A stretch of 35,862 nt of DNA from a virus. Below, in pieces: positions 3,737 to 34,382 of this stretch; within the stretch, counting starts at the first letter, position 1, and the number at the start of each line of letters is the position of its first letter. The notes under the pieces are model-generated. The model saw only the letters and a program-made list of their open reading frames with translations. It did not search any database and was not told the DNA's origin. The position numbers and the translations under genes were made by a program. The stretch covers positions 1 to 35,862 of IMG/VR virus record IMGVR_UViG_3300047496_000075; one strand, given 5' to 3'.

Positions 3737-5905
3737 TTAGTAATTTGGTAAATCATTTCTAAAGAACTGTGGCATATTTTGTTCGCCATAAATAGCCTCT
3801 CTCTTCATCTTATCAAAATCATTTGATGACATAGAATCTTTTGTCTTAGGTAAAGCTATACATAAGTATCTCATTGCGTCACTATTGCTAACAATTGCGC
3901 CATTTGCTAAAGAAAAATGTCCAGATATTGGCACATTAATACACCACACTTCATGCATTCCCTCTAGTTTTTCTATTTTTTCTACCATAAGATGCTTTGC
4001 AGTTTGGGTGGCAGAACTTTTGGGAATTATTTTTTCTTTGCAAAAGCATAGCTTGCTTTCCACAGAACAAACATTCTCCAATGATTCTAATTTGTTTTTC
4101 CCAACTTTTAATTCGGATTGCATGTTCACTGTGCCATCTTCTTCCAGCTTCACTTCCATGCCATTTAATAGCGGCCTCTCTTGCCTTTTGGCTGAATCCC
4201 TTGTTATTTGGTTTAGGCATTTTTCTATGCTCTCTGGCAGGAAAGCAAACAAGGTTTGAAAGCTTGTTGTTATCTGTGTTACTATCTTTGTGATGAATGT
4301 GGCAATCTGTCGGAATATTACCATAGGCTGAACTCCAGACTTCACGGTGTAACCTTGATCCGAAAGTTCTGTTATAGTATTTTGTTCCTCGATTTTTATA
4401 TATTTTGTTATTAAATGTTTGCGTTGAAACATGTTCGACGATAGGATCTGCGATCCGGATTTCAGGTTCTCTGCAGATATCCATCCTGACTCCGTCAAGA
4501 ATAAATGATCCGGCGTACATCTCACTTTTACACCATCTACAAAAACCACCTGAACTAAGTTCGCATTCTTTCTCATGCTCTTTGAGCCTATGCACTTTTC
4601 CCATCCATTCGCAGTAAGAATCTCTTCATTATCCCTAATACTTATTATAGGACGCATCCCGCTACGCGTCAATACCATTGTATCATGGGCAAAGCAAAAA
4701 TGGCTAAATTTATCGTGTAGTGGATGCGGCTTGTATATTTGTTTTTTGGAATCCCATTCTTGCCTATAGTTTTCAAGAGCCTTGATTAATGGCTTGCAAT
4801 TGTTTTTGTCTATCCAGACTTTATCTAGAGTGGATCTAACAGCCTCAATTCCGTCCACTATTGAAAGATCTGGCGCTATTGTGAAGTCTATGCCTAACTG
4901 CCTAGCTTTCTCAATCCTGGTCAGTCCTGATCCCCATTCTTGAACCTTTACGTCATGTGGTGCTATGAATTTACCATAAAGGTAAGGTTTATTGCGAATT
5001 ACTTGTACATAGTGCTCAAGTCCAACTTTAGAATTCTCATATGTATCAATTATTCTTATTGTTTGACCTATATTCTGAAAGAATATAAGACATGTCGAAT
5101 CTCTCACACCGATATCTATAGCCACATGAACTTTAAACGCTGACTCCCAGTTAACATCTCCAATTTGATTTTTAACTCGCATTTTATCGATATATTTAGC
5201 ATAATATGCACCTTCAACACCCATATCAAAACTGGTATAAAACTCCTGCATAGCAAAGTCTTCAGATATTAGACCCTCAGATATCTCTTTTTGTATTTGA
5301 TGTGGTGTTATATGATCTGTGTCTAGAATTGTTAATTTAGATGCGAACCAATTCTCTGGATTATTAATTGCTATTTGATAGAGCTCCCATAAATGATTCT
5401 TGCCACGAGGCGTTGAAATAAACAATGACCAACCATCATTGCCAAGTAGAATAGGGCGTAGGAATTTATATGCTTGTGGATCTTGTAAGGCATACTCAGA
5501 GAATATAATCCCAATTGGATTAGAACCCATAAGTGAATCTATGTTATCACTCCCGACCAATTGGATTAAAGATCCATTGGTTAATGTGATTTTCATTTGT
5601 TGACTATTAGATGATTGTATTAATTCTTGTGGAATGTAATCAAGAAATCTCACACCTTCAGTTGTAATGGAATCCCATATTACTTTGCGAGCTTGAGAAT
5701 ATTCTGGGAAGACATAATAATATACACCTATCTTGCGTAGAGCTTGCCTTAATAATAGATTAAAAGCACAAACGTCTTTGCCTGCTCTGCGGGGCCAAAT
5801 ACACAGTAGGCGCTTATATTTACCAGATTCTAATGCATGACAAAGTGGGAGCTGGTATGGCCTTGGATGGAAGCGATTAAGATGTATTTTTGTTTCAATC
5901 TTCAT
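3737..5905 (-). CDS. terL: Terminase large subunit, intein-containing precursor (722 aa; 451 aa after splicing)
   Basis: Walker A-like PRRAGKD and Walker B-like IGIIFSEY. The nuclease-domain motif HDKFSHF|SDAMRYL is restored when aa 404-674 are removed. Confidence 0.88.
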   Translation of the reverse strand: MKIETKIHLNRFHPRPYQLPLCHALESGKYKRLLCIWPRRAGKDVCAFNLLLRQALRKIGVYYYVFPEYSQARKVIWDSITTEGVRFLDYIPQELIQSSNSQQMKITLTNGSLIQLVGSDNIDSLMGSNPIGIIFSEYALQDPQAYKFLRPILLGNDGWSLFISTPRGKNHLWELYQIAINNPENWFASKLTILDTDHITPHQIQKEISEGLISEDFAMQEFYTSFDMGVEGAYYAKYIDKMRVKNQIGDVNWESAFKVHVAIDIGVRDSTCLIFFQNIGQTIRIIDTYENSKVGLEHYVQVIRNKPYLYGKFIAPHDVKVQEWGSGLTRIEKARQLGIDFTIAPDLSIVDGIEAVRSTLDKVWIDKNNCKPLIKALENYRQEWDSKKQIYKPHPLHDKFSHFCFAHDTMVLTRSGMRPIISIRDNEEILTANGWEKCIGSKSMRKNANLVQVVFVDGVKVRCTPDHLFLTESGWISAENLKSGSQILSSNMFQRKHLITKYIKIEEQNTITELSDQGYTVKSGVQPMVIFRQIATFITKIVTQITTSFQTLFAFLPESIEKCLNQITRDSAKRQERPLLNGMEVKLEEDGTVNMQSELKVGKNKLESLENVCSVESKLCFCKEKIIPKSSATQTAKHLMVEKIEKLEGMHEVWCINVPISGHFSLANGAIVSNSDAMRYLCIALPKTKDSMSSNDFDKMKREAIYGEQNMPQFFRNDLPNY
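3884..4696 (-). mobile_element. Intein in terL (Cys404..Asn674, +1 Ser675)
   Basis: Block A CFAHDTMVLT, block B CTPDHLFLT, blocks F/G VWCINVPISGHFSLANGAIVSN|S. Codon positions were checked against the nucleotides. Confidence 0.8.
3951..4604 (-). CDS. HNH homing endonuclease, nested inside the intein but in a different frame from terL
   Basis: LHREVW..GNIPTDCHIHHKDSNTDNNKLSNLVCFPAREH forms the H-N-H core. The C-terminus has CLFCGK...FCHPNC zinc-ribbon-like Cys pairs. The frame offset from terL is 2. The true start may be internal (M29). Confidence 0.72.
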   Translation of the reverse strand: MGKVHRLKEHEKECELSSGGFCRWCKSEMYAGSFILDGVRMDICREPEIRIADPIVEHVSTQTFNNKIYKNRGTKYYNRTFGSRLHREVWSSAYGNIPTDCHIHHKDSNTDNNKLSNLVCFPAREHRKMPKPNNKGFSQKAREAAIKWHGSEAGRRWHSEHAIRIKSWEKQIRIIGECLFCGKQAMLLQRKNNSQKFCHPNCKASYGRKNRKTRGNA

Positions 5906-11831: not shown

Positions 11832-12215
11832 ATGGAATTAGAACTATTAGAAATTGATGCGGCAGCAGACAATTTATTTAAAAAATTAGATATCGTAAAT
11901 GAGTTAATAAAAGCCACAGAAAATAAACTTGAAAAAATTGGATTTGAATATGAGATATATACTAATCAAATTAATGGATCTGGTTCCTGGATATACATTG
12001 GCTGGGTATATAATCCAGATCAAAGAAAAAATAGATTATGCATTATAAATAAATCACCTACAGGAAGAAACGAAGGATCGCGTCCATTTTTAGAATGTAA
12101 ATTAGATGAAAGATTGAAATATATCGAATTTATTCCTATGTTTTTAGCGGAATTTAGAAAATTTATAATAGATAAAACCCATGCTGTGGATAACGCTATA
12201 TTTGGAATGGATTAA
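11832..12215 (+). CDS. Hypothetical protein (127 aa)
   Basis: ORF track; first long gene of the plus-strand operon. Confidence 0.6.
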   Translation: MELELLEIDAAADNLFKKLDIVNELIKATENKLEKIGFEYEIYTNQINGSGSWIYIGWVYNPDQRKNRLCIINKSPTGRNEGSRPFLECKLDERLKYIEFIPMFLAEFRKFIIDKTHAVDNAIFGMD

Positions 12216-12216
12216 T

Positions 12217-12402
12217 ATGCGTATTAATGTATTGGAATATGACTCAAGATATGAATTAGAGATGAAATTAAATACACTATATGACTTATGTTGTGATGAA
12301 AACTCTAGATTTGATGTGCAATTTAGTACTTATTATACTTCTGGGTCAAGAGCGCCAAAGGTTATATATTGTGCATTAGTTATGTATGAGGAAAAGATAT
12401 AA
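12217..12402 (+). CDS. Hypothetical protein (61 aa, MRINVLEYDS...)
   Basis: An internal Met of ORF 12181..12402 chosen as start because it abuts the upstream stop. Confidence 0.45.
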   Translation: MRINVLEYDSRYELEMKLNTLYDLCCDENSRFDVQFSTYYTSGSRAPKVIYCALVMYEEKI

Positions 12403-12539
12403 TGGAAAATAACCAAGAATATAAGTGTATTGTTTGTGGTATTGATTTACCAGATATGAAATTTAATGAGTGCTACAAGTGTTTTAATAGATATTTTGAG
12501 GCATTAAGAGCAGTAGAGAGAAAATATGAGAATAAATAG
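12402..12539 (+). CDS. Small zinc-ribbon protein (45 aa, CIVC...CYKC)
   Basis: Manual translation. The ATG overlaps the previous TAA. Confidence 0.4.
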   Translation: MENNQEYKCIVCGIDLPDMKFNECYKCFNRYFEALRAVERKYENK

Positions 12540-12569
12540 CTATGATATAAATTTATATAGGGATCACTA

Positions 12570-13160
12570 ATGGAATGGAATAAATTCGAAGATTGTGCTC
12601 CACCACTTAATCAATATATCTTAATTAGAAACGAAAATTCAAAAAATAATAATATATGCCCCGCAGTTTCATCATATGCGGGAAGTTTTGTATTTATTTC
12701 ATGCGCTGGTTGCAGGTGGTCTATACCATCAGAGCCTTATACTCACTGGGCATTATATCCAAATGAGGGATTAATATGCTGTGAGGGTTGTGGCAGGAAT
12801 TATATTTATCATTTATGTGATCCAAATTTTAATCAACATTCAAGATGTGTATCTAAGAATAGATTAACGCCATATGAACAAAAAGAACTTGAGCTAAAAA
12901 ATCATGAATTGGTTATAGTTCAAGAAAGAAATGAAAATATTAGATGGTGGCTAAAAAGAATAATAATTGGAGTGGCCATTTGGTTTATTATAGAAAAGAT
13001 AACATTATTTGTAGTTCCATTAATTAAAACTGAGTTAGAATTCAGATATAAGAAGAAATATATAAAAATGTATAAAGATGAACTAAAAGAAGAAATAAAA
13101 GAAATAAGTAAATTCGCAATAGATAGCACTAAAGACATAATCAGGGAGTTAAAGAAATAA
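12570..13160 (+). CDS. Hypothetical protein with DUF551-like N-terminus, Cys cluster and a C-terminal transmembrane helix
   Basis: MEWNKFEDCAPPLNQYILI..., CCEGCGRN and IIIGVAIWFIIEKITLFVVPLI. Confidence 0.55.
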   Translation: MEWNKFEDCAPPLNQYILIRNENSKNNNICPAVSSYAGSFVFISCAGCRWSIPSEPYTHWALYPNEGLICCEGCGRNYIYHLCDPNFNQHSRCVSKNRLTPYEQKELELKNHELVIVQERNENIRWWLKRIIIGVAIWFIIEKITLFVVPLIKTELEFRYKKKYIKMYKDELKEEIKEISKFAIDSTKDIIRELKK

Positions 13161-13337
13161 ATGGAAGATTTTAATGATATACTTCCCATAATTCCTCCTA
13201 AAATGCCTAAATGGCTAGAAGAATTATATGGACCCACCGAGTACTTAAAAGATATGAATAGATATTTACAACAAAAAGATAAAGAAGTGGAAAATAATGG
13301 AAACAATAGAACTAATGAAGATACAAGAACAATTTGA
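13161..13337 (+). CDS. Small hypothetical protein (58 aa)
   Basis: ATG immediately after the previous stop. Overlaps the erf start by 41 nt, so one of the two starts is uncertain. Confidence 0.3.
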   Translation: MEDFNDILPIIPPKMPKWLEELYGPTEYLKDMNRYLQQKDKEVENNGNNRTNEDTRTI

Positions 13338-14046
13338 TAAGATAATTAATCAAATGCAGTTGATTGTTAATGAGATAGATAGACAAAGGATAGCTATCAG
13401 GCCAAACAAATCCACTCATGTCAATGAACTTTATATGGCATTAGCGAAGGCACAATCTGAAATGCCGGCAGCTACATCAAGTAGTGAGAATCCATACTTT
13501 AAAAGTAGTTATGCTGATTTAACTGAGATTGTTGCATCTTCTAGGCCAGCACTAACAAAACACGGCCTAGCGGTGATTCAACAAATACAGTGCAATAATG
13601 AAGGCCAGAATGTATTATATACGATCCTGACGCATTCTAGTGGCCAATATATTGAATCTGCTATGAAGATAATCCCAGCTAAGACGGATATACAGTCTTT
13701 AGGGTCGCATATTACCTATTTAAGGCGTTATTGCTATGCTAGCTTAATCGGTGTAGTAGTAGCCAATGAAGATGATGATGGAGAGATTGCAGTAGCTAAT
13801 ACAAGGCAATTGGCTGCAAAGGGCACAGCACTAAACACTAAATACAATCCAACTGAAAATAAGATGGAAACTGTGACTAAAGAACAACTTGAAGAGTTGG
13901 AATATGAATTGTCAGAGTATCCCGATATTGCCAATCAAGTATTAGATGGATTAAAGATAATGAATCTGGCTGATATGCCTAAATCTAAATATCATGTATC
14001 GTTGACCAGGATAAGAGAGATTAAGTTAACCAGAAATGGAAAATAA
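13297..14046 (+). CDS. erf: ERF-family single-strand annealing recombinase
   Basis: NPYFKSSYADLTEIVASSRPALTKHGLAV...ILTHSSGQYIES...LGSHITYLRRYCYASLIGV matches the ERF core pattern. Confidence 0.78.
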   Translation: METIELMKIQEQFDKIINQMQLIVNEIDRQRIAIRPNKSTHVNELYMALAKAQSEMPAATSSSENPYFKSSYADLTEIVASSRPALTKHGLAVIQQIQCNNEGQNVLYTILTHSSGQYIESAMKIIPAKTDIQSLGSHITYLRRYCYASLIGVVVANEDDDGEIAVANTRQLAAKGTALNTKYNPTENKMETVTKEQLEELEYELSEYPDIANQVLDGLKIMNLADMPKSKYHVSLTRIREIKLTRNGK

Positions 14047-14063
14047 ATACTAAAAAGGAGAGT

Positions 14064-14354
14064 ATGAAGATAGTAGTGAGATTTACAAAGCCAACCGCTT
14101 TTGATGAATTACCTTATGGTACAATAATAAATATACCTGAGATACCAGGAGAGCGCGCGCAATATTATATACAAACCAGCAAAGAAGAGTATAAACCAAG
14201 ATGGATATCATCAGGTGATCTATTTAACTCTGTTTTTATGGAATTAATTGATAAAGATGGATTTATGGATAACTGCCTAGAATTATACAATGGTAATAAT
14301 AATAAAAAAGAAAATCTTAGTATTATTGCTGGTATGTTATTCGGATTAGAATAG
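14064..14354 (+). CDS. Hypothetical protein (96 aa)
   Basis: ORF track. Confidence 0.55.
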   Translation: MKIVVRFTKPTAFDELPYGTIINIPEIPGERAQYYIQTSKEEYKPRWISSGDLFNSVFMELIDKDGFMDNCLELYNGNNNKKENLSIIAGMLFGLE

Positions 14355-14358
14355 AATG

Positions 14359-14769
14359 TTAATTTGATAATTTAGATAACATAATCAACGCGCAAACATT
14401 TGAAATTCCCCACATAACTATAACAGATGCTAGGGCAGCAGACTTACATCTTGACCATCTATTTTCAGCTTCATAAAGTCTATATTCAGGCAATGTAGCT
14501 ATATTAGTGATCTGAGAAACTGAGGGGTGCAGAAACCTAATCTGTCCTGGACTATATTGATGTGACTTGGCTCTTGTATTATCACCACGTGTTAGTGGAT
14601 AGTGTCTTAGTTTTCTATGTTTATCATCAGCAACTACATTAGGTATTGGAGCGACAGATCTTTCTTTTTTATCCTCTTTTACATCTTCTGGCTTAATTCC
14701 AATAGATATATGGGCTGGAAAGATGGAATTAATAAAACTAAATATTACTAAAAATATTAATTTTTTCAT
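14359..14769 (-). CDS. Secreted or membrane-anchored protein, opposite orientation to its neighbours (moron-like)
   Basis: N-terminal signal-like MKKLIFLVIFSFINSIFPA and C-terminal hydrophobic helix AALASVIVMWGISNVCALIML. Confidence 0.55.
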   Translation of the reverse strand: MKKLIFLVIFSFINSIFPAHISIGIKPEDVKEDKKERSVAPIPNVVADDKHRKLRHYPLTRGDNTRAKSHQYSPGQIRFLHPSVSQITNIATLPEYRLYEAENRWSRCKSAALASVIVMWGISNVCALIMLSKLSN

Positions 14770-14852
14770 AAAAATATGTTACCTATTAAATGTTGAGATA
14801 TGTATATATTTAGTTTTGCAGATTTATTAAATTTATTCAATGTGGTAGAAAT

Positions 14853-15233
14853 ATGAAAAAAATAATTTATGGTCTATGGATGAGAATAAAAGATAAGTGC
14901 TATGCTGAAAAATCTAAAGAATATCCCAAATATGGTGGCAAAGGAATAAAAATGGATCCCAAATGGGATGATCTTGATAAATTTACAGCCGACATAGGAG
15001 AAAGGCCCTCAAAGGATCACCATTTTAGTAGAATAGATTATTCTAAAGATTTCAATAAAGATAATTGTAAATGGATGACTAGAAAAGAAATAGCTGTGAT
15101 TTTAATTAAAAATGGCAGTAAGCCTACAGGAAAAAAGAAAATCACTAAGCCACTAGATCTAATAAAAGATAATTCTCATTTAAAAAATGCATCCGAAGTA
15201 TATTTAAAATTTATCGCATCGCGCAATAAATAG
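14853..15233 (+). CDS. Conserved-looking phage protein (YGGKGI ... W ... F ... RID ... NCKW pattern), function unknown
   Basis: 126-aa ORF. The motif resembles a widespread phage family that is often annotated as DNA-binding. The call is from memory only. Confidence 0.4.
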   Translation: MKKIIYGLWMRIKDKCYAEKSKEYPKYGGKGIKMDPKWDDLDKFTADIGERPSKDHHFSRIDYSKDFNKDNCKWMTRKEIAVILIKNGSKPTGKKKITKPLDLIKDNSHLKNASEVYLKFIASRNK

Positions 15234-28833: not shown

Positions 28834-29253
28834 TTATACTCTAGGTAAATATTCTACTGTTAATAAACCAACATCCGGAGTTAGATCTTCGATATCAACG
28901 AATTCTAAGCTCTGAAAGCTGCAACGCCTTACTTTTTGACCTATTTTCATAGCAGGACGGCCATTCTCATCAACTGCATGAGTATGCACTGGAATGAAGC
29001 AATTCTTATTTAAGTGAACCGCAACACCAAGAGGCAATGTATAGATTTCTCCGTCCATAAGATCGAATCTTTCTACCGGATCTTCTTTCCACTTCTTGAA
29101 GACAAATGACATCATACCACCTGGAACCTCATGGAATATAAATTTACCACGCACCATTTCTCTATCTTTGTCTCTCAGATATTTATAGTTTGGCTTTGGC
29201 TTAGCTGTTGATACTGGTATTTGTGTTTCTTTTTGAGCTTTTTGTGCTTGCAT
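28834..29253 (-). CDS. Hypothetical virion-module protein (139 aa)
   Basis: ORF track. Confidence 0.55.
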   Translation of the reverse strand: MQAQKAQKETQIPVSTAKPKPNYKYLRDKDREMVRGKFIFHEVPGGMMSFVFKKWKEDPVERFDLMDGEIYTLPLGVAVHLNKNCFIPVHTHAVDENGRPAMKIGQKVRRCSFQSLEFVDIEDLTPDVGLLTVEYLPRV

Positions 29254-29271
29254 AGTTTTCCTTTATAAAGA

Positions 29272-29294
29272 GGGTGGGAGTAAACCCCCCACCC
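29272..29294 (-). terminator. GC-rich hairpin GGGTGGG...CCCACCC followed (minus strand) by UCUUUAU
   Basis: Read directly; lies between the 386-aa and 139-aa genes. Confidence 0.45.
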
Positions 29295-29303
29295 AATGGT
29301 TTA

Positions 29304-30464
29304 TTATAGACCGCCGTAAGTAGATTTACCCGCTACCCAATATATGGTATCTGCTACAGAACTAGTTGTAGTTCCGGCAGGTCCAATTATTGGTGTTCCA
29401 GATAATAATCCATTACCACCTGACCCTAAAATCATTCCTAAGTAACCAGCGTTAACAGTTGAATCAGATAAAATACCTGTGTTGGTACTAAATATCTGTA
29501 ATCCACCATTTAAAGGAACTTGAGGATTTAGATTTACTAAAGCATTGGCAGTATCTTCACCCACTGGATTAAAGTGAGGGAAAGAAGATGGCTGTTGTGC
29601 AATAGTAGGCCATGCAAATGCTGTGTAAGCACTTGTATCTATATTAATTACAAAGTTATAAGCATCAGTAACACTTAATACTGTCGCAGTTTGACCATTC
29701 AATTGAGTCATGCCGGTTACCGGAACTAAGTTAGGTATTTCAAACCTAATTAGTTGGCCAGCGCATAGATTATGTTCAACTGAAGTAGAAACTGTTGGAG
29801 TAGTTGCTTGTGTAACTTTAACTACATAACGACGACGAGGATAGAATAGAGGATTGGTATTAACAATTCTATAGAATCCAGCGCCACCTATTGCTCCAGG
29901 AGCAGTAGCTAATACGTTAGTAGCTGTTAATAAAGTAAAGCTAGTGTTAGCAGTAACTGCACCAACTACCATGTCAATACCATTAACATCTGTTTGGGCA
30001 GTATTACTCATACGAACAACTGTACCAACAGATATACCTGTAGTATCTCCAGTGCTAACAACAGGCTGTGTAGCATTAGTAGAAGCAGTTGTTGCAACAG
30101 CAGCTCCTAATATTGGTTGCGCACCTAGTGTTTGCCCGGATGGATCATAAAGCGTAAATCCACCGGATTGTAATGTATCAAATCCAACTGAAGGAGTGTT
30201 TGTGGCATTGCGATATTTTACAATACCGGTACCCACAGCCATTCCACGTTGCCAATAGAATTCAGCACCAATTGCGGCATTACCTGTGCCTTGGAATGTA
30301 GCGGTACTTGTACCTGCTTTTCCAAATTGAGTATAGTTGTACACCTTCAACCAATCAGCACCAGAAGGTATCTGAATGATTGTAGGAGCTGCAGCAGTTA
30401 TAGTTCCAGTAGCATTCACTAGATTAGCTAGAAAACTACCTTGTCCGATTATAGTTCCGTCCAT
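29304..30464 (-). CDS. Capsid-associated protein (386 aa) with two copies of the shared beta-barrel-like module
   Basis: Start moved to the ATG at 30464, which is preceded by an AGGAG overlapping the capsid stop. Modules are GISVGTVVRMSN..VNGIDMVVGAV and HNLCAGQLIRFEIPN..GMTQLNGQTATVLSV. Confidence 0.6.
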   Translation of the reverse strand: MDGTIIGQGSFLANLVNATGTITAAAPTIIQIPSGADWLKVYNYTQFGKAGTSTATFQGTGNAAIGAEFYWQRGMAVGTGIVKYRNATNTPSVGFDTLQSGGFTLYDPSGQTLGAQPILGAAVATTASTNATQPVVSTGDTTGISVGTVVRMSNTAQTDVNGIDMVVGAVTANTSFTLLTATNVLATAPGAIGGAGFYRIVNTNPLFYPRRRYVVKVTQATTPTVSTSVEHNLCAGQLIRFEIPNLVPVTGMTQLNGQTATVLSVTDAYNFVINIDTSAYTAFAWPTIAQQPSSFPHFNPVGEDTANALVNLNPQVPLNGGLQIFSTNTGILSDSTVNAGYLGMILGSGGNGLLSGTPIIGPAGTTTSSVADTIYWVAGKSTYGGL

Positions 30465-30472
30465 TGTATCTC

Positions 30473-30988
30473 CTAAGCTAATGTAGCGCGTAAATTGATT
30501 ACCCAAAGGTCATTAGTGATCCTTGGAACTTCCGCAAATTTATAACCAACTGAAGCATTTAATGCTAAAGGTCCGTCATATATTGGTGGTCTATATATAA
30601 AAGACGCACTGTATCCGTCTTGTTCTATACAAGCATAAGCTTCCATACCAACGCAGAATATATTGTATACTGTTGCGCCTAATGAAGAAGCATTTAAACT
30701 TGTTGAACCAATACTGGAAATCAAGAATCTCAAGTTGCCAATAGCACCCCATTCTGAACGCAAGGCATTCATAGGAGCTGGATATTGGTTCTTTTGAATG
30801 AATCCAGCAACGTTATCCAAGTTTCCGGTTAAGTTTGTTGAACATAATGCAAAATATGCATCACGAACAGGCGCTGTACCGAATTTATCTTCACCTTCAA
30901 TGTTATCCATGATTGTATATGCATTATTATTCAATAAAGCACGAACAACTGTATCAACATCGGTTCTGGTTATTTCTGTAGGAACGTC
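30473..30988 (-). CDS. Major capsid protein, exon 4 (DVPTEITRTD...RATLA*)
   Basis: In frame with exon 3 once intron 3 is removed. The C-terminal pattern resembles HK97-fold capsid proteins of the N4 gp56 type. Confidence 0.75.
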   Translation of the reverse strand, partial: DVPTEITRTDVDTVVRALLNNNAYTIMDNIEGEDKFGTAPVRDAYFALCSTNLTGNLDNVAGFIQKNQYPAPMNALRSEWGAIGNLRFLISSIGSTSLNASSLGATVYNIFCVGMEAYACIEQDGYSASFIYRPPIYDGPLALNASVGYKFAEVPRITNDLWVINLRATLA

Positions 30989-31002
30989 CAATCTATTACT
31001 TT

Positions 31003-31031
31003 TTGACTTAAATTTATATATTTGTTATCAT
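31003..31031 (+). promoter_or_regulatory. Sigma70-like promoter TTGACT-17 nt-TATCAT, ending 6 nt (31032..31037) before the LAGLIDADG ATG
   Basis: Read directly. There is no Shine-Dalgarno between the -10 and the ATG, which suggests a leaderless mRNA. Confidence 0.35.
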
Positions 31032-31037
31032 ATAATT

Positions 31038-31955
31038 ATGAAACAAATTACTACAAATACCGATCTTGCATATTTCGCTGGTTACATTGATGGAGATGGA
31101 TGTTTTTATATTGGTAAATATATCGATAAGAAAACCAAGCGCATTAAATATCAATCCAGACTTATTATATCTTCTACAAATAGAGATATTTTTAAGCATT
31201 TTAAAACTTTGTATGGTGGAATTATTAGAATGTCCGATAATAGGATTAAATATCCAGGACAAAAACCACAATATCAATTTATAATTTCTGGAAATTCTGC
31301 TAGTAAAATTACTGATAAAATAACAAATATTTTGCATGAAAAACGATTCCAGGCCGACTTTTTTGTAAAGTTTAGCAATACAAAAAGCAAATCCCAAAAA
31401 GATTATTTTATTGATCTTTTTCATGATATTAAAGAACATTTTTATGTTTCTAAAGATAGAATATATCTTATTAAGAACGGTTCTTATCGCATAACTCCCA
31501 AAGAAGAAGACTATGCCTATCTTGCTGGATTTATAGATGCTGAATGCTCTTTGGGTATACAACATTATAAACCGAAAAATAAACCCAATCAGGTTTATAA
31601 AATTTACCTGAAATGCAATAACACTCAATCTCCAATTTTTCATTGGCTTTACGAAAGATTCGGTGGTCAGTTGCAATTTATAAATCGAAACAATAAAAAT
31701 ATTAATCATAAAGACCAGATAATGTGGACCCTCAGCGGAAAAGCTCTTTCTCAAATACTTCCATACATTTTTAAATATATCCAATATAAAAAACCAGTTT
31801 GCGAACAACTCATGAAATTCGATGCCACTACTCTTAAAAATGGCGGCGCAAGACACACGGAAAAATTCCGGGAATCCTATGCTAAAATTATTAAAGAGCG
31901 AGAATTGATTATTCATGAAGTCCATCGTCTCAACAAAAAAGGTATTCCAATTTAA
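31038..31955 (+). CDS. Double-motif LAGLIDADG homing endonuclease (305 aa)
   Basis: LAYFAGYIDGDGCF and YAYLAGFIDAECSL motifs. The start is set at the first Met after the antisense capsid exon. Confidence 0.85.
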   Translation: MKQITTNTDLAYFAGYIDGDGCFYIGKYIDKKTKRIKYQSRLIISSTNRDIFKHFKTLYGGIIRMSDNRIKYPGQKPQYQFIISGNSASKITDKITNILHEKRFQADFFVKFSNTKSKSQKDYFIDLFHDIKEHFYVSKDRIYLIKNGSYRITPKEEDYAYLAGFIDAECSLGIQHYKPKNKPNQVYKIYLKCNNTQSPIFHWLYERFGGQLQFINRNNKNINHKDQIMWTLSGKALSQILPYIFKYIQYKKPVCEQLMKFDATTLKNGGARHTEKFRESYAKIIKERELIIHEVHRLNKKGIPI

Positions 31956-32138
31956 GCGGGTAGTCATTTCTGCTACCTCTCATACTTATCGCATGAGGCT
32001 CGACTATCGCATCCTCAATAGAGGTCTTCTTGTTTAGTCTGTCAGGCTGTATTTAAACTTGCCCCTTGTTGCCGGTTAGCTTATTGCCACTTCGGGTTCC
32101 AAGTCAATTAAAGAAGATTTTAAAACGGCAACATTTCT

Positions 32139-32417
32139 ACCGTTTACACCACCGGTGCAATTTATAAACGCAGCAGTAGCGGCCAACATGTCTCTTGTTA
32201 ACTGATCCTCTGTTTGTCTTAAACTTACACCTAATCTAGCCGCACATTCATTAAGAACAGGGTCTTGGTTTTGCAGGGTTACTTGTTCATTCAATTGAAC
32301 GTATGTCCCATAAAAACTAATTTTAGCATCAATATCAACAGCTGTTAAATTCTGAGCAGGAGGAGTTACACCAGTATTACCTAGAGGCACCATTGCTGTA
32401 TTTAACGGGTTATATCT
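32139..32417 (-). CDS. Major capsid protein, exon 3 (RYNPLNTAMVPLGNTGVTPP...CTGGVNG)
   Basis: 93 codons; boundaries fixed by the P1 helix and the terminal G of intron 2. Confidence 0.75.
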
Positions 32418-32810
32418 CATTTTTTGTTACTATTTGAAATTTATTCAAACGGGAATGCCTATTGCACATTCCTCACTGTGTTTCCACAATGTTCAGAGCA
32501 CCGCATCACTTTTCAGTGTTTTCTCGCTTGCTACGTTCAGGCTGATCGGGTATTAATTTAGTCCATGAATTATTTTTATATTTTTTCATCCAAATAGTAT
32601 CGCTATCAGTATTTATCCAAAATGCTGTATCTACTAAATCCAATTTATCATTTGAATTTGGATTTCTTTTGGATATTATCGTATTACTTGGAATATAATC
32701 ACATTTTTTATTAAACCAATTAATCATAATCTTGCCCCTTGTTGTCTACGACTTTACGTTTAGAGTTCCAAGTCTATCAGAGAAAATTTTAAATGCGCAG
32801 ATTTTTGTTT
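32418..32810 (-). mobile_element. Group I intron 2 of the capsid gene (393 nt)
   Basis: P1 pairs AAUGCGU (32817..32811) with GCGCAUU (32798..32792), ending in U.G. The intron ends ...AAAAUG. It shares 65-nt and 60-nt blocks identically with intron 1. Confidence 0.72.
32506..32727 (-). CDS. Intron 2 ORF (73 aa), no recognisable endonuclease motif
   Basis: Starts 7 nt after the AAGGGG of the intron core. The last 12 codons (QPERSKRENTEK) are encoded by conserved intron core sequence. Confidence 0.5.
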   Translation of the reverse strand: MINWFNKKCDYIPSNTIISKRNPNSNDKLDLVDTAFWINTDSDTIWMKKYKNNSWTKLIPDQPERSKRENTEK

Positions 32811-32927
32811 ACGCATTCTTAAAGTTGTTCCACCATTCCTTGGCATGTTTTTTTTCATAGCCGGAATTTTGTGGATCATATTAGGAACCGGGACTGATAA
32901 AAGCTTATAACTAAAGCTTTGTTGTAC
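32811..32927 (-). CDS. Major capsid protein, exon 2 (VQQSFSYKLL...GGTTLRMR)
   Basis: 39 codons found by manual translation between introns 1 and 2. Confidence 0.7.
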
Positions 32928-33280
32928 CATTCTGTTACTTTTGTGACCTATTTCTAGGCGAGGAAGCCTATTGCACTTCCCTCATTGCATTTCTACAATG
33001 TTCAGAGCACCGCATCACTTTTCAGTGTTTTCTCGCTTGCTACGTTCAGGCTGAAGAAAATCATTTAAAAATGCTTTATAATCAACTTGATATAATCCCT
33101 CACAGAATTCGCAAACAATATGATGATAATCATCTATATTAAATGCCTTTCCGTCTACAAAATATACCTTATCACATCGTTCACATTTATATTGATTCAT
33201 AATCTTGCCCCTTGTTGTCTACGACTTTACGTTTAGAGTTCCAAGTCTATCAGAGAAAATTTAACGCGCCCATACATTTT
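32928..33280 (-). mobile_element. Group I intron 1 of the capsid gene (353 nt)
   Basis: P1 pairs GCGCCU (33286..33281) with GGGCGC (33271..33266), ending in U.G. The intron ends ...AGAAUG. Confidence 0.7.
33015..33200 (-). CDS. Intron 1 ORF (61 aa), zinc-ribbon-like (CERC...CEFC)
   Basis: Same insertion point and same 12-aa C-terminal tail as the intron 2 ORF. Confidence 0.5.
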   Translation of the reverse strand: MNQYKCERCDKVYFVDGKAFNIDDYHHIVCEFCEGLYQVDYKAFLNDFLQPERSKRENTEK

Positions 33281-33316
33281 AGGCGCCGGAAGAGTCGAGG
33301 TTGTTGTAATTGCCAT
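33281..33316 (-). CDS. Major capsid protein, exon 1 (MAITTTSTLPAP)
   Basis: The ATG at 33316 is preceded by AAGGAG with a 6-nt spacer. Confidence 0.65.
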
Positions 33317-33523
33317 CGATTAGCTCCTTAAAATATATGAATATATACTTCAAGCTGGACGAGTCTTGGCTTTTGCGTCCGTGGATTGGGCGATGATCCA
33401 TTGCGCCGAGGTGAGTTGAGGACAAAATATCGACAACTTATAGATAGTTGAAGATTGCGATTCTTCTATTGCGCTAATGGAATTATAACTTTTAGAGTTG
33501 AAAAGTGCAAATTAAAATTGGAA

Positions 33524-33566
33524 CCCGAGCTAAAGAAGATATACGGATAAACTTCTTCAACTCGGG
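33524..33566 (-). terminator. Imperfect hairpin (CCCGAG..AAGAAG / CTTCTT..CTCGGG) followed by a U-rich tract; attenuator-like, between the scaffold and capsid genes
   Basis: Read directly. On the minus strand UUCCAAUUUUAAUUU follows. Confidence 0.35.
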
Positions 33567-33653
33567 CAAGTAATGAAGCCTAATTTAATTCCCATGAAGT
33601 ACAAAACATAGCTAAATAAAATTTACAATACCTTCATGGGATATACTAATTTA

Positions 33654-34382
33654 CTATCTACCCTGCCTTATTGCAAGCATCATCTCTTTGTGGAGCTGTG
33701 TTTTTAAGTCCTCAGTAAGACCATTGGCAAATGCATTTGCATTAGTTAGGGGGCTATTTGATTGCTGTGGGGATATCGAAGCTAGCGGCCTTGGCTTAGC
33801 AGCATTTCTCTGAACTACAGCCTTTTCATTTTCATAAGTATGTTCTGGCGATATACCAAGCTTTTTTATTAACTTGTAAGTAGAAATAGCTTTACTATAA
33901 ACATCCGTGGATGTGTGTAGTGTATGTGCTAATTCTGGGAAATCAGAACGTAGTTGCTCAATATTTTCATCATTTACTACCGAAGCAAAGTCAGGATATT
34001 GAGATAATACCCTTGTTTCAACTGATTGTGCGGTAGATTGTTGTTGATATTGTCTTAATTGCTCTTCGAGCTTACGTACTTTTTTATCCACTTTAGAAAG
34101 GTGTTTGCCTTCAGCATACTGATCCGCCTCGAGTCCAAGATCTGAATCAACTTCCTCAGTTGATTGGCTTTCGGACCTTTTATTATTATTTTGTTCATAT
34201 TGCCTTAATAAATTATAAGCTTCATCTCTTTCGCGCTGAATTCTTTCTTTAGATTCACGCAGTTGCCTAAAGCTTTCAGATGGACTTGTTTTTTGTTCTT
34301 GTACTGGTTGAACTTGCTGTTCTATTTCTTGTGTTTCAACTTCTTCAGGAACTTGCGGTAAATTATCTATATCATCAAACAT
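33654..34382 (-). CDS. Scaffolding-like protein (acidic, coiled-coil, 242 aa)
   Basis: Highly charged Gln/Glu-rich sequence immediately upstream of the capsid gene. Confidence 0.5.
   Translation of the reverse strand: MFDDIDNLPQVPEEVETQEIEQQVQPVQEQKTSPSESFRQLRESKERIQRERDEAYNLLRQYEQNNNKRSESQSTEEVDSDLGLEADQYAEGKHLSKVDKKVRKLEEQLRQYQQQSTAQSVETRVLSQYPDFASVVNDENIEQLRSDFPELAHTLHTSTDVYSKAISTYKLIKKLGISPEHTYENEKAVVQRNAAKPRPLASISPQQSNSPLTNANAFANGLTEDLKTQLHKEMMLAIRQGR

Follow-up and report, generated by a model that had tools for sequence, protein, structure and literature searches.

The 35,862-nt stretch of viral DNA analyzed here (IMG/VR record IMGVR_UViG_3300047496_000075, positions 1 to 35,862; hereafter the window) carries a major capsid gene on its minus strand that is interrupted by intervening sequences at three places (353, 393 and 1150 nt). 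The third of these (30989..32138) holds, on its other strand, a gene for a LAGLIDADG homing endonuclease. Assigned to the N4-gp56 family (Pfam PF25209), the capsid gene lies in four pieces; its homologs number in the thousands, the nearest being uninterrupted proteins of 315 to 316 amino acids (91 to 94% identity). Conceptual splicing of positions 33316..33281, 32927..32811, 32417..32139 and 30988..30473 gave a capsid protein of 315 amino acids that aligned without gaps to homologs P0001, P0003 and P0027 (93 to 94% identity). At the third junction, an exon 3 ending in ...GTAAACGGT at 32139 meets an exon 4 beginning with GACGTTCC at 30988. An exact look-up of the spliced 315-amino-acid protein returned no record, and thus no cDNA-like or identical intron-less contig is on record; exon 3 alone had no match among GenBank phages. 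An original prediction, made from the letters of the window, had put the endonuclease gene on the plus strand and the intron and capsid gene on the minus strand, and this layout was borne out by a Pfam match for the gene and by exact intron limits of 32138..30989.

The endonuclease open reading frame (ORF) matched Pfam LAGLIDADG_1 (PF00961) over two stretches (E = 1.8e-10), and a profile search gave I-MsoI/I-CreI and the monomeric enzymes I-PanMI and I-OnuI as its nearest PDB relatives. The protein database held 393 homologs of ~300 amino acids, mostly on contigs of 33 to 40 kb, and an alignment of 31 homologs showed the motifs GYIDGDGCF (D20) and GFIDAEC (E169) to be invariant. A tblastn search of the endonuclease against GenBank phages returned distant LAGLIDADG matches in Streptomyces phages only. 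The ratio of nonsynonymous to synonymous substitution rates (dN/dS) was 0.11 to 0.25 in 11 pairs of relatives with 70 to 89% amino-acid identity. The original prediction had named a decayed pseudogene in related genomes as the outcome that would undo it; on these ratios the family is not decaying, and the gene itself is intact and under purifying selection. The N terminus of the family alignment agreed with a start at ATG 31038. A longer ORF from ATG 30798 was rejected as spurious, its N-terminal extension being antisense to exon 4 and missing from the family alignment.

Upstream of that start codon, a TTGACT hexamer and a TATCAT element separated by 17 nt lie inside the intron's 3' end (31003..31031), just where they had been proposed to form a promoter. 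Also as proposed, the -10 element ends 6 nt before the ATG (31032..31037, ATAATT), and no Shine-Dalgarno motif is found upstream of ATG 31038. The same arrangement was sought in relatives. A promoter matching at least 9 of 12 positions, with its -10 element ending 5 to 9 nt before the ATG, was found at 40 to 49 of 68 distinct endonuclease starts (59 to 72%; the range is set by the choice between two nearby ATGs as start), compared with 126/15091 control ATGs (0.8%). In 43 of the 49 promoter-bearing relatives the -10 element ended 6 or 7 nt before the ATG, and TTGACT or TTGACA recurred in most relatives. Shine-Dalgarno-like 4-mers preceded 7/68 endonuclease starts versus 17/25 long ORFs of the window. 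Relatives in which the gene sits in intron loop L6 have different flanks and keep the same geometry, reading TTGACT (GGGTCTTGACT), 17 nt, TATAAT, 7 nt, ATG; at a further locus (L001) the order is TGGACT, 17 nt, TGcTATATT, 6 nt, ATG. The spacer sequence is thus free to diverge while the geometry of promoter and ATG is kept across three insertion contexts. Variants that do have a Shine-Dalgarno motif (L053, L055, L072 and the single-domain lineage described below) carry the promoter ~20 to 40 nt further upstream, and this either-or pattern of Shine-Dalgarno motif and near promoter is what a real transcription start would produce. It is this conservation in relatives, and not the single-site match, that gives the promoter its significance. 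Conserved geometry and rare Shine-Dalgarno motifs together support the suggestion that the gene has its own promoter and possibly a leaderless mRNA, with a transcription start predicted at or adjoining A31038. A perfect TATAAT at 31031..31036 was rejected as the -10 element: it lies 22 nt from the -35 element and 1 nt from the ATG, and relatives keep the other register.

By its structure, the third intervening sequence is a compact group I intron. We aligned 27 introns (the 3 of the window and 24 from related loci, with inserted ORFs masked) and scored a model with helices P1, P10, P3, P4, P5, P6, P7 (in a pseudoknot with P3), P8, P9, P9.1 and P9.2, and without P2. As controls, pairing partners were slid by 1 to 3 columns and 500 shuffles were made. 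Standard pairs filled 92.7% of cells in the model versus 38 to 46% with slid partners, the covariation score was 0.452 versus 0.06 to 0.12, and compensatory change was seen in 42/58 model pairs versus 12 to 23; none of the 500 shuffles reached the observed values. Helix P3 was 96% paired, with compensatory change in 7/7 pairs; P4, P5, P6 and P7 were 100% paired; and P10 was 84.6% paired, with compensatory change in 5/6 pairs. Such changes were present in P3, P4, P5, P6, P7, P8, P9.1, P9.2 and P10, and an independent run of RNAalifold recovered P1, P3, P4, P5, P6 and P9.2. In P7 the G-C and A-U pairs are invariant and have a bulged base on their 5' side; its strands, CAGACUAAA and AUAGUC, resemble the R/S elements that are classical for group I introns of the Tetrahymena type. 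The P1 strands (GCGCCU/GGGCGC in intron 1, AAUGCGU/GCGCAUU in intron 2 and AAACGGU/GCCGUUU in intron 3) covary with the exon sequence across the three window introns and a related locus (L002), and a U.G wobble stands at the 5' splice site in 25/26 aligned introns. Each of the window introns 1, 2 and 3 is preceded by U and has G as its last nucleotide. Across the 27 introns this final G (G232 of the alignment) is invariant, and the AAGUAAYAG of the 3' tail is invariant or almost so.

The endonuclease gene is set into this fold as a cassette. Promoter spacer, -10 element, ORF and stop codon all fall within the P9.2 terminal loop, and the stem that closes the loop was 96% paired, with compensatory change in 6/8 pairs (for example CUUAAAUG/CAUUUAAG, CUUUAGC/GCUAAAG, CCUGU/ACAGG and CUUAC/GUAAG), and was predicted by RNAalifold as well. 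In introns of the family that lack the ORF, P9.2 is a short hairpin such as CCUA-GAAA-UAGG. Coordinates of these elements are collected in Table 1.

Table 1. Features of the capsid locus and its third intron in the window
Feature	Position	Strand	Remarks
-35-like hexamer TTGACT	31003..31008	+	Overlaps the junction of the P9.2 3' strand and the conserved 3' tail
Extended -10 element TGtTATCAT	31023..31031	+	TATCAT at 31026..31031, TG at 31023-24; 17-nt spacer from the -35 element
Two-domain LAGLIDADG homing endonuclease gene	31038..31955	+	305 amino acids plus stop codon; antisense to the intron
Third group I intron of the capsid gene	30989..32138	-	1150 nt; 5' splice site after U32139; terminal G at 30989
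Ribozyme core of intron 3	31957..32138	-	P1 3' strand/internal guide sequence 32129..32123; P3 32117..32111 with 32031..32025; P4-P6; P7 32039..32035 with 32006..32002; P8, P9, P9.1
P9.2 5' strand CUUAAAUU	31949..31956	-	Overlaps the endonuclease stop codon of the other strand
P9.2 3' strand AAUUUAAG	31007..31014	-	Closes a loop of ~930 nt
Intron 3' tail GUCAAAAAGUAAUAGAUUG	30989..31006	-	Conserved; ends in the terminal G
Capsid exon 3	32139..32417	-	P1 joins its last 7 nt, AAACGGU, to the internal guide sequence
Capsid exon 4	30473..30988	-	P10 can form between its first 6 nt, GACGUU, and AAUGUU at 32125..32130
Capsid intron 2	32418..32810	-	393 nt; same intron family; small sense ORF 32727..32506 in L6
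Capsid intron 1	32928..33280	-	353 nt; same intron family; small sense ORF 33200..33015 in L6

To establish how the gene is oriented in relatives, 83 loci were compared, comprising 80 IMG/VR loci retrieved with the endonuclease profile and 3 found earlier. The capsid exons lay on the strand opposite to the endonuclease gene in 83/83 loci, as in the window. A second search, with a DNA pattern spanning the end of exon 3 and the internal guide sequence, returned 42 loci, and the gene was inverted in 18/18 of those that carried it. Within the capsid gene, members of the endonuclease family are inserted after residues 144, 117 and ~162, and a more distant single-domain lineage is inserted after residue ~103. 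The insertion lies in L9.2 in the window and in the groups after residues 144 and 162. In the group after residue 117 it lies in L6, closed by the stem CUUGAUU/AGUCAAG, whose 3' strand, AGUCAAG, is the complement of the -35 hexamer. Single-domain LAGLIDADG genes of 160 to 176 amino acids were also seen antisense in other capsid introns (L001, 5767..6297 on the plus strand, and L075-L081); those of L075-L081 have a -10 element and then a leader with an AGGAG Shine-Dalgarno motif. A 168-amino-acid LAGLIDADG gene at locus L002 (6491..6997, minus strand) is apparently sense to the capsid gene and is a candidate intron gene; other LAGLIDADG lineages in such capsid genes can thus apparently lie sense.

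Every stage of a homing-endonuclease cycle can be read from the sequences found at one capsid codon. An intron-less allele (L084, in a capsid gene ~94% identical) has the junction ...GGTGTGGATGGA|GATAATCC..., or GTGGATGGA|GATAAT; ORF-less introns of 200 to 256 nt occupy the same codon, as do introns of 1133 to 1168 nt with an intact inverted gene. Some ORF-less introns (L100, L115, L125, L087 and L121) retain footprints of the cassette in their P9.2 loops: the final codons of the endonuclease gene persist in L115 and L125, and the extended -10 element TGTTATCATC in L100, and the -10 element TGTTATCAT is among the retained cassette ends. These remnants indicate that the gene was lost by internal deletion.

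Taken together, the locus is probably a mobile group I intron whose endonuclease would be expressed from the opposite strand as an independent, convergent and leaderless transcription unit. The cassette in the P9.2 loop would consist of a sigma-70-type promoter (TTGACT, 17 nt, TGnTATCAT), a leaderless mRNA and a monomeric two-domain endonuclease of 305 amino acids. Since no phage RNA polymerase was found among the ~20 larger ORFs of the window that were scanned, the host RNA polymerase with sigma-70 would be expected to transcribe the gene, independently of the capsid promoter, and the leaderless mRNA would be translated at a low level. The enzyme might then cut intron-less capsid alleles of co-infecting relatives at the junction of exons 3 and 4, after which repair would copy in the intron together with its cassette (homing). 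Inversion, with the loop closed by a covarying stem, would keep ribosomes and the ORF off the folding ribozyme and would uncouple endonuclease dosage from the very strong late transcription of the capsid gene. The endonuclease would be expected to be shut off late in infection by convergent transcription together with plentiful capsid pre-mRNA and excised intron, both perfectly antisense to the endonuclease message. The original prediction was right that a transcript of the endonuclease gene would be antisense to the capsid pre-mRNA, and wrong about where it leads: a plus-strand transcript from 31038 would pass through the complement of the ribozyme core into exon 3 (32139..32417), not exon 4 (30473..30988), which lies upstream of the promoter. 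The coupling to capsid expression or splicing that the prediction raised is speculative. An extension of this mechanism to a temporal switch is conceivable, if rather doubtful. Early in infection the host polymerase would fire the intron promoter, giving the leaderless mRNA and read-through antisense to the core and exon 3; late in infection, convergent transcription of the capsid gene and its abundant pre-mRNA and excised intron (~0.9 kb of perfect antisense) would silence the endonuclease; and, in the reverse direction, early antisense RNA could delay capsid splicing. Through the inverted cassette, a selfish gene and an essential phage gene would then regulate each other, an arrangement conserved in a large group of uncultured phages.

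Several observations weigh against the reading of a mobile intron with an autonomous inverted gene. Six matches of 10/12 occur in 7.8 kb, TTGACT-17-TATCAT among them, and promoter-like sites are not enriched there (22 found versus 32.7 expected); a single-site match of this kind is at chance level in this AT-rich DNA. Some 30 to 40% of relatives were without a match of at least 9/12 by the criteria used, and that the host uses sigma-70 consensus sites is an assumption. A scan for intrinsic terminators found none on the plus strand after the endonuclease gene; a 4-bp hairpin antisense to P8 and followed by TCTTCTTGTTT was considered as one and rejected, as it is not conserved in relatives. The 83 loci, too, are not independent, and their shared orientation may stem from only two to four insertion events; the bias is striking and not statistically overwhelming. 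Alternatively, the promoter-like sequence could be only the conserved 3' tail and P9.2 stem beside an AT-rich loop, with the endonuclease transcribed from elsewhere or barely at all and the leaderless geometry an artefact. Besides the chance-level match, such an account draws on the first spacer bases, which belong to the P9.2 stem, and on the conservation of GUCA(A/C)AAAGUAAYAG in ORF-less introns. The GUCA (RNA) part of the -35 element is indeed kept in these introns (GGUCACAAAAGUAACAG); conservation of the -35 element is therefore partly a ribozyme constraint, and the element seems to be built on a pre-existing part of the ribozyme. What this account leaves unexplained is the conservation of the -10 element and of its fixed distance of 6 to 7 nt from the ATG in a loop that is otherwise unconstrained, the same geometry in the different intron context of the L6 group, and the displaced promoter of those variants that have a Shine-Dalgarno motif; that the protein is under strong purifying selection also implies its expression. 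We therefore regard it as unlikely.

Purifying selection could also reflect a host-beneficial role, with the LAGLIDADG protein acting chiefly as a maturase that helps the capsid introns to splice. In group I introns of organelles, maturases of the LAGLIDADG family are well established, as are bifunctional enzymes (I-AniI, for example); the capsid gene of the window has three related introns whose splicing would be essential, and the protein is conserved. Such a role is nonetheless quite improbable as the main one, given that the metal-binding acidic residues of both motifs (D20 and E169) are invariant, that ORF-less introns of the family (introns 1 and 2 of the window and the 200- to 256-nt copies) have no such protein in cis, and that mobility would account both for the presence/absence polymorphism at one site and for the spread to several. 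The group I assignment itself has Rfam 15 against it. Its group I models gave no match in the whole window at the gathering threshold, none at E<=10 on 29000-33700, none in 19 related loci and none even at E<=10 in a 200-nt ORF-less copy (L126, 1270..1520); the only weak matches in Rfam were to unrelated long noncoding RNA and small nucleolar RNA models (E>2). This silence, and the in-frame stop codon that follows each exon, might be taken to mean that the capsid protein is made in pieces, or that the insertions are of a different kind, for example a free-standing endonuclease gene that splits the capsid gene. Against this stand the full group I topology given by covariation, the U.G pair at the 5' splice site, the terminal G, P1 and P10 helices that track the exon sequence, and in-frame junctions that are exact at all three sites. 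In addition, the intron of mycobacteriophage LittleE, which is known to be spliced (PMC3706429), has similar P7 strands (CAGACUAAAC and UAUAGUC), a similar 3' tail and a sub-threshold match to the Rfam model Intron_gpI. Either alternative thus appears very improbable, and the failure of Rfam is one of model coverage; a match to a curated model is not a defining biochemical feature of a group I intron.

Comparison with known systems places the mobile intron and its inverted gene among partial precedents. The introns of phage T4 are likewise phage group I introns with an endonuclease ORF in a peripheral loop and with regulatory elements of their own that separate its expression from that of the host gene. 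Unlike the inverted and predictedly leaderless gene of the window, T4 intron ORFs are sense and rely on late or middle promoters and translational occlusion. The T4 intron endonucleases are of the GIY-YIG or HNH type, not LAGLIDADG. In cyanophage S-PM2 an antisense RNA, CfrI, reportedly links the psbA gene, which has a group I intron, with the endonuclease F-CphI, whose gene is said to be free-standing beside psbA and not, as in the window, within the intron. Nuclear group I introns of ribosomal DNA (rDNA) can carry antisense genes for His-Cys box endonucleases with their own promoters (I-DirII of Didymium, PMC3073962; L2066 introns, PMC9548176). As in the window, the endonuclease gene there is antisense to both intron and host gene and has a promoter independent of the host transcript. 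These systems differ in being eukaryotic, with an RNA polymerase II promoter, spliceosomal introns, polyadenylation and an rRNA host gene, in using the His-Cys box family, and in having no leaderless bacterial mRNA.

The closest precedent is LittleE itself (JF937101), whose capsid gene has a probable group I intron with splicing shown by reverse transcription-PCR (PMC3706429). Its gp14, a LAGLIDADG/I-CreI-like protein, is encoded on the bottom strand within that intron (PMC3706429). The layout is that of the window, with a ribozyme core of ~200 nt, an antisense gene and a short 3' tail ending in ...GAGUAACAAGG. The protein differs, being a single-domain one of 177 amino acids with marginal similarity to that of the window (20% identity, E = 8e-4); the host is an actinobacterium, and the intron has a sub-threshold Rfam group I match (30.7 bits) where the window family has none. 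The LittleE paper records the bottom-strand gene and leaves its promoter, translation start and distribution unanalyzed (PMC3706429). The words antisense, opposite and orientation do not occur in a review of bacterial group I introns (PMC3984707), and our literature search for phage and bacterial intron endonucleases encoded antisense or on the opposite strand found only LittleE. The original prediction that antisense endonuclease genes in group I introns are rare and known mainly from eukaryotic rDNA was therefore broadly right (PMC3073962, PMC9548176, PMC3984707), but it missed this phage precedent (PMC3706429).

The general arrangement of an antisense endonuclease gene in an intron is thus already known; three things appear undescribed, namely that a bacterial promoter with leaderless geometry is conserved, that it is integrated with the stem closing an intron helix, and that the family is so broad. 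In reviews of group I introns from bacteria and phages, intron endonuclease genes figure as sense-strand passengers. A large and environmentally widespread set of phages, the window among them, has a LAGLIDADG gene family that is always inverted, and the cassette looks like an autonomous transcription unit able to occupy both L9.2 and L6. It would offer a natural case of convergent transcription within an essential late gene. Since Rfam is blind to this intron family, the introns will go unnoticed in standard annotation, and gene callers will break such capsid genes into fragments.

Introns 1 and 2 of the window have core sequences almost identical to each other. Their L6 ORFs (33200..33015, 61 amino acids, zinc-ribbon-like; 32727..32506, 73 amino acids) start at GGGGCAAGAUUAUG and end within P6'/P7/P3'/P8, and hence share the C terminus QPERSKRENTEK. 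The terminator scan also flagged the P1 hairpin of intron 1 (33266..33286, minus strand; GCGCCU..GGGCGC followed by GUUAAAUUUU), a signal that is probably a by-product of P1 and a U-rich J1/3. Among related introns at codon 144 (L089, L091, L093, L095, L096, L098, L101, L104, L112-L114 and L117-L119), most have small sense ORFs in L6 of ~30 to 130 amino acids and highly diverse sequence. Most of these ORFs share a start position, where AAGGGG of P4'/P6 acts as a Shine-Dalgarno-like motif. Some codon-144 introns have additional insertions in L8 or L9.2, and in L101 the ORF lies in the P5 region instead.

The source of the window is a tailed phage of ~36 kb known from a metagenome record only. 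The phage-like contig codes for a P22-type portal, a large terminase subunit, a tail fibre, a tail spike and an ERF recombinase, and its genes are nearly all encoded by the minus strand. Within the large terminase gene (PHROG 2; 3737..5905, minus strand) is an intein-like insertion (Pfam Intein_splicing, residues ~443-674), a further selfish element within the same small genome. The sole sizeable block of plus-strand genes (11832..15233), which includes the ERF-family recombinase (13297..14046), may be an early operon transcribed opposite to the structural genes.

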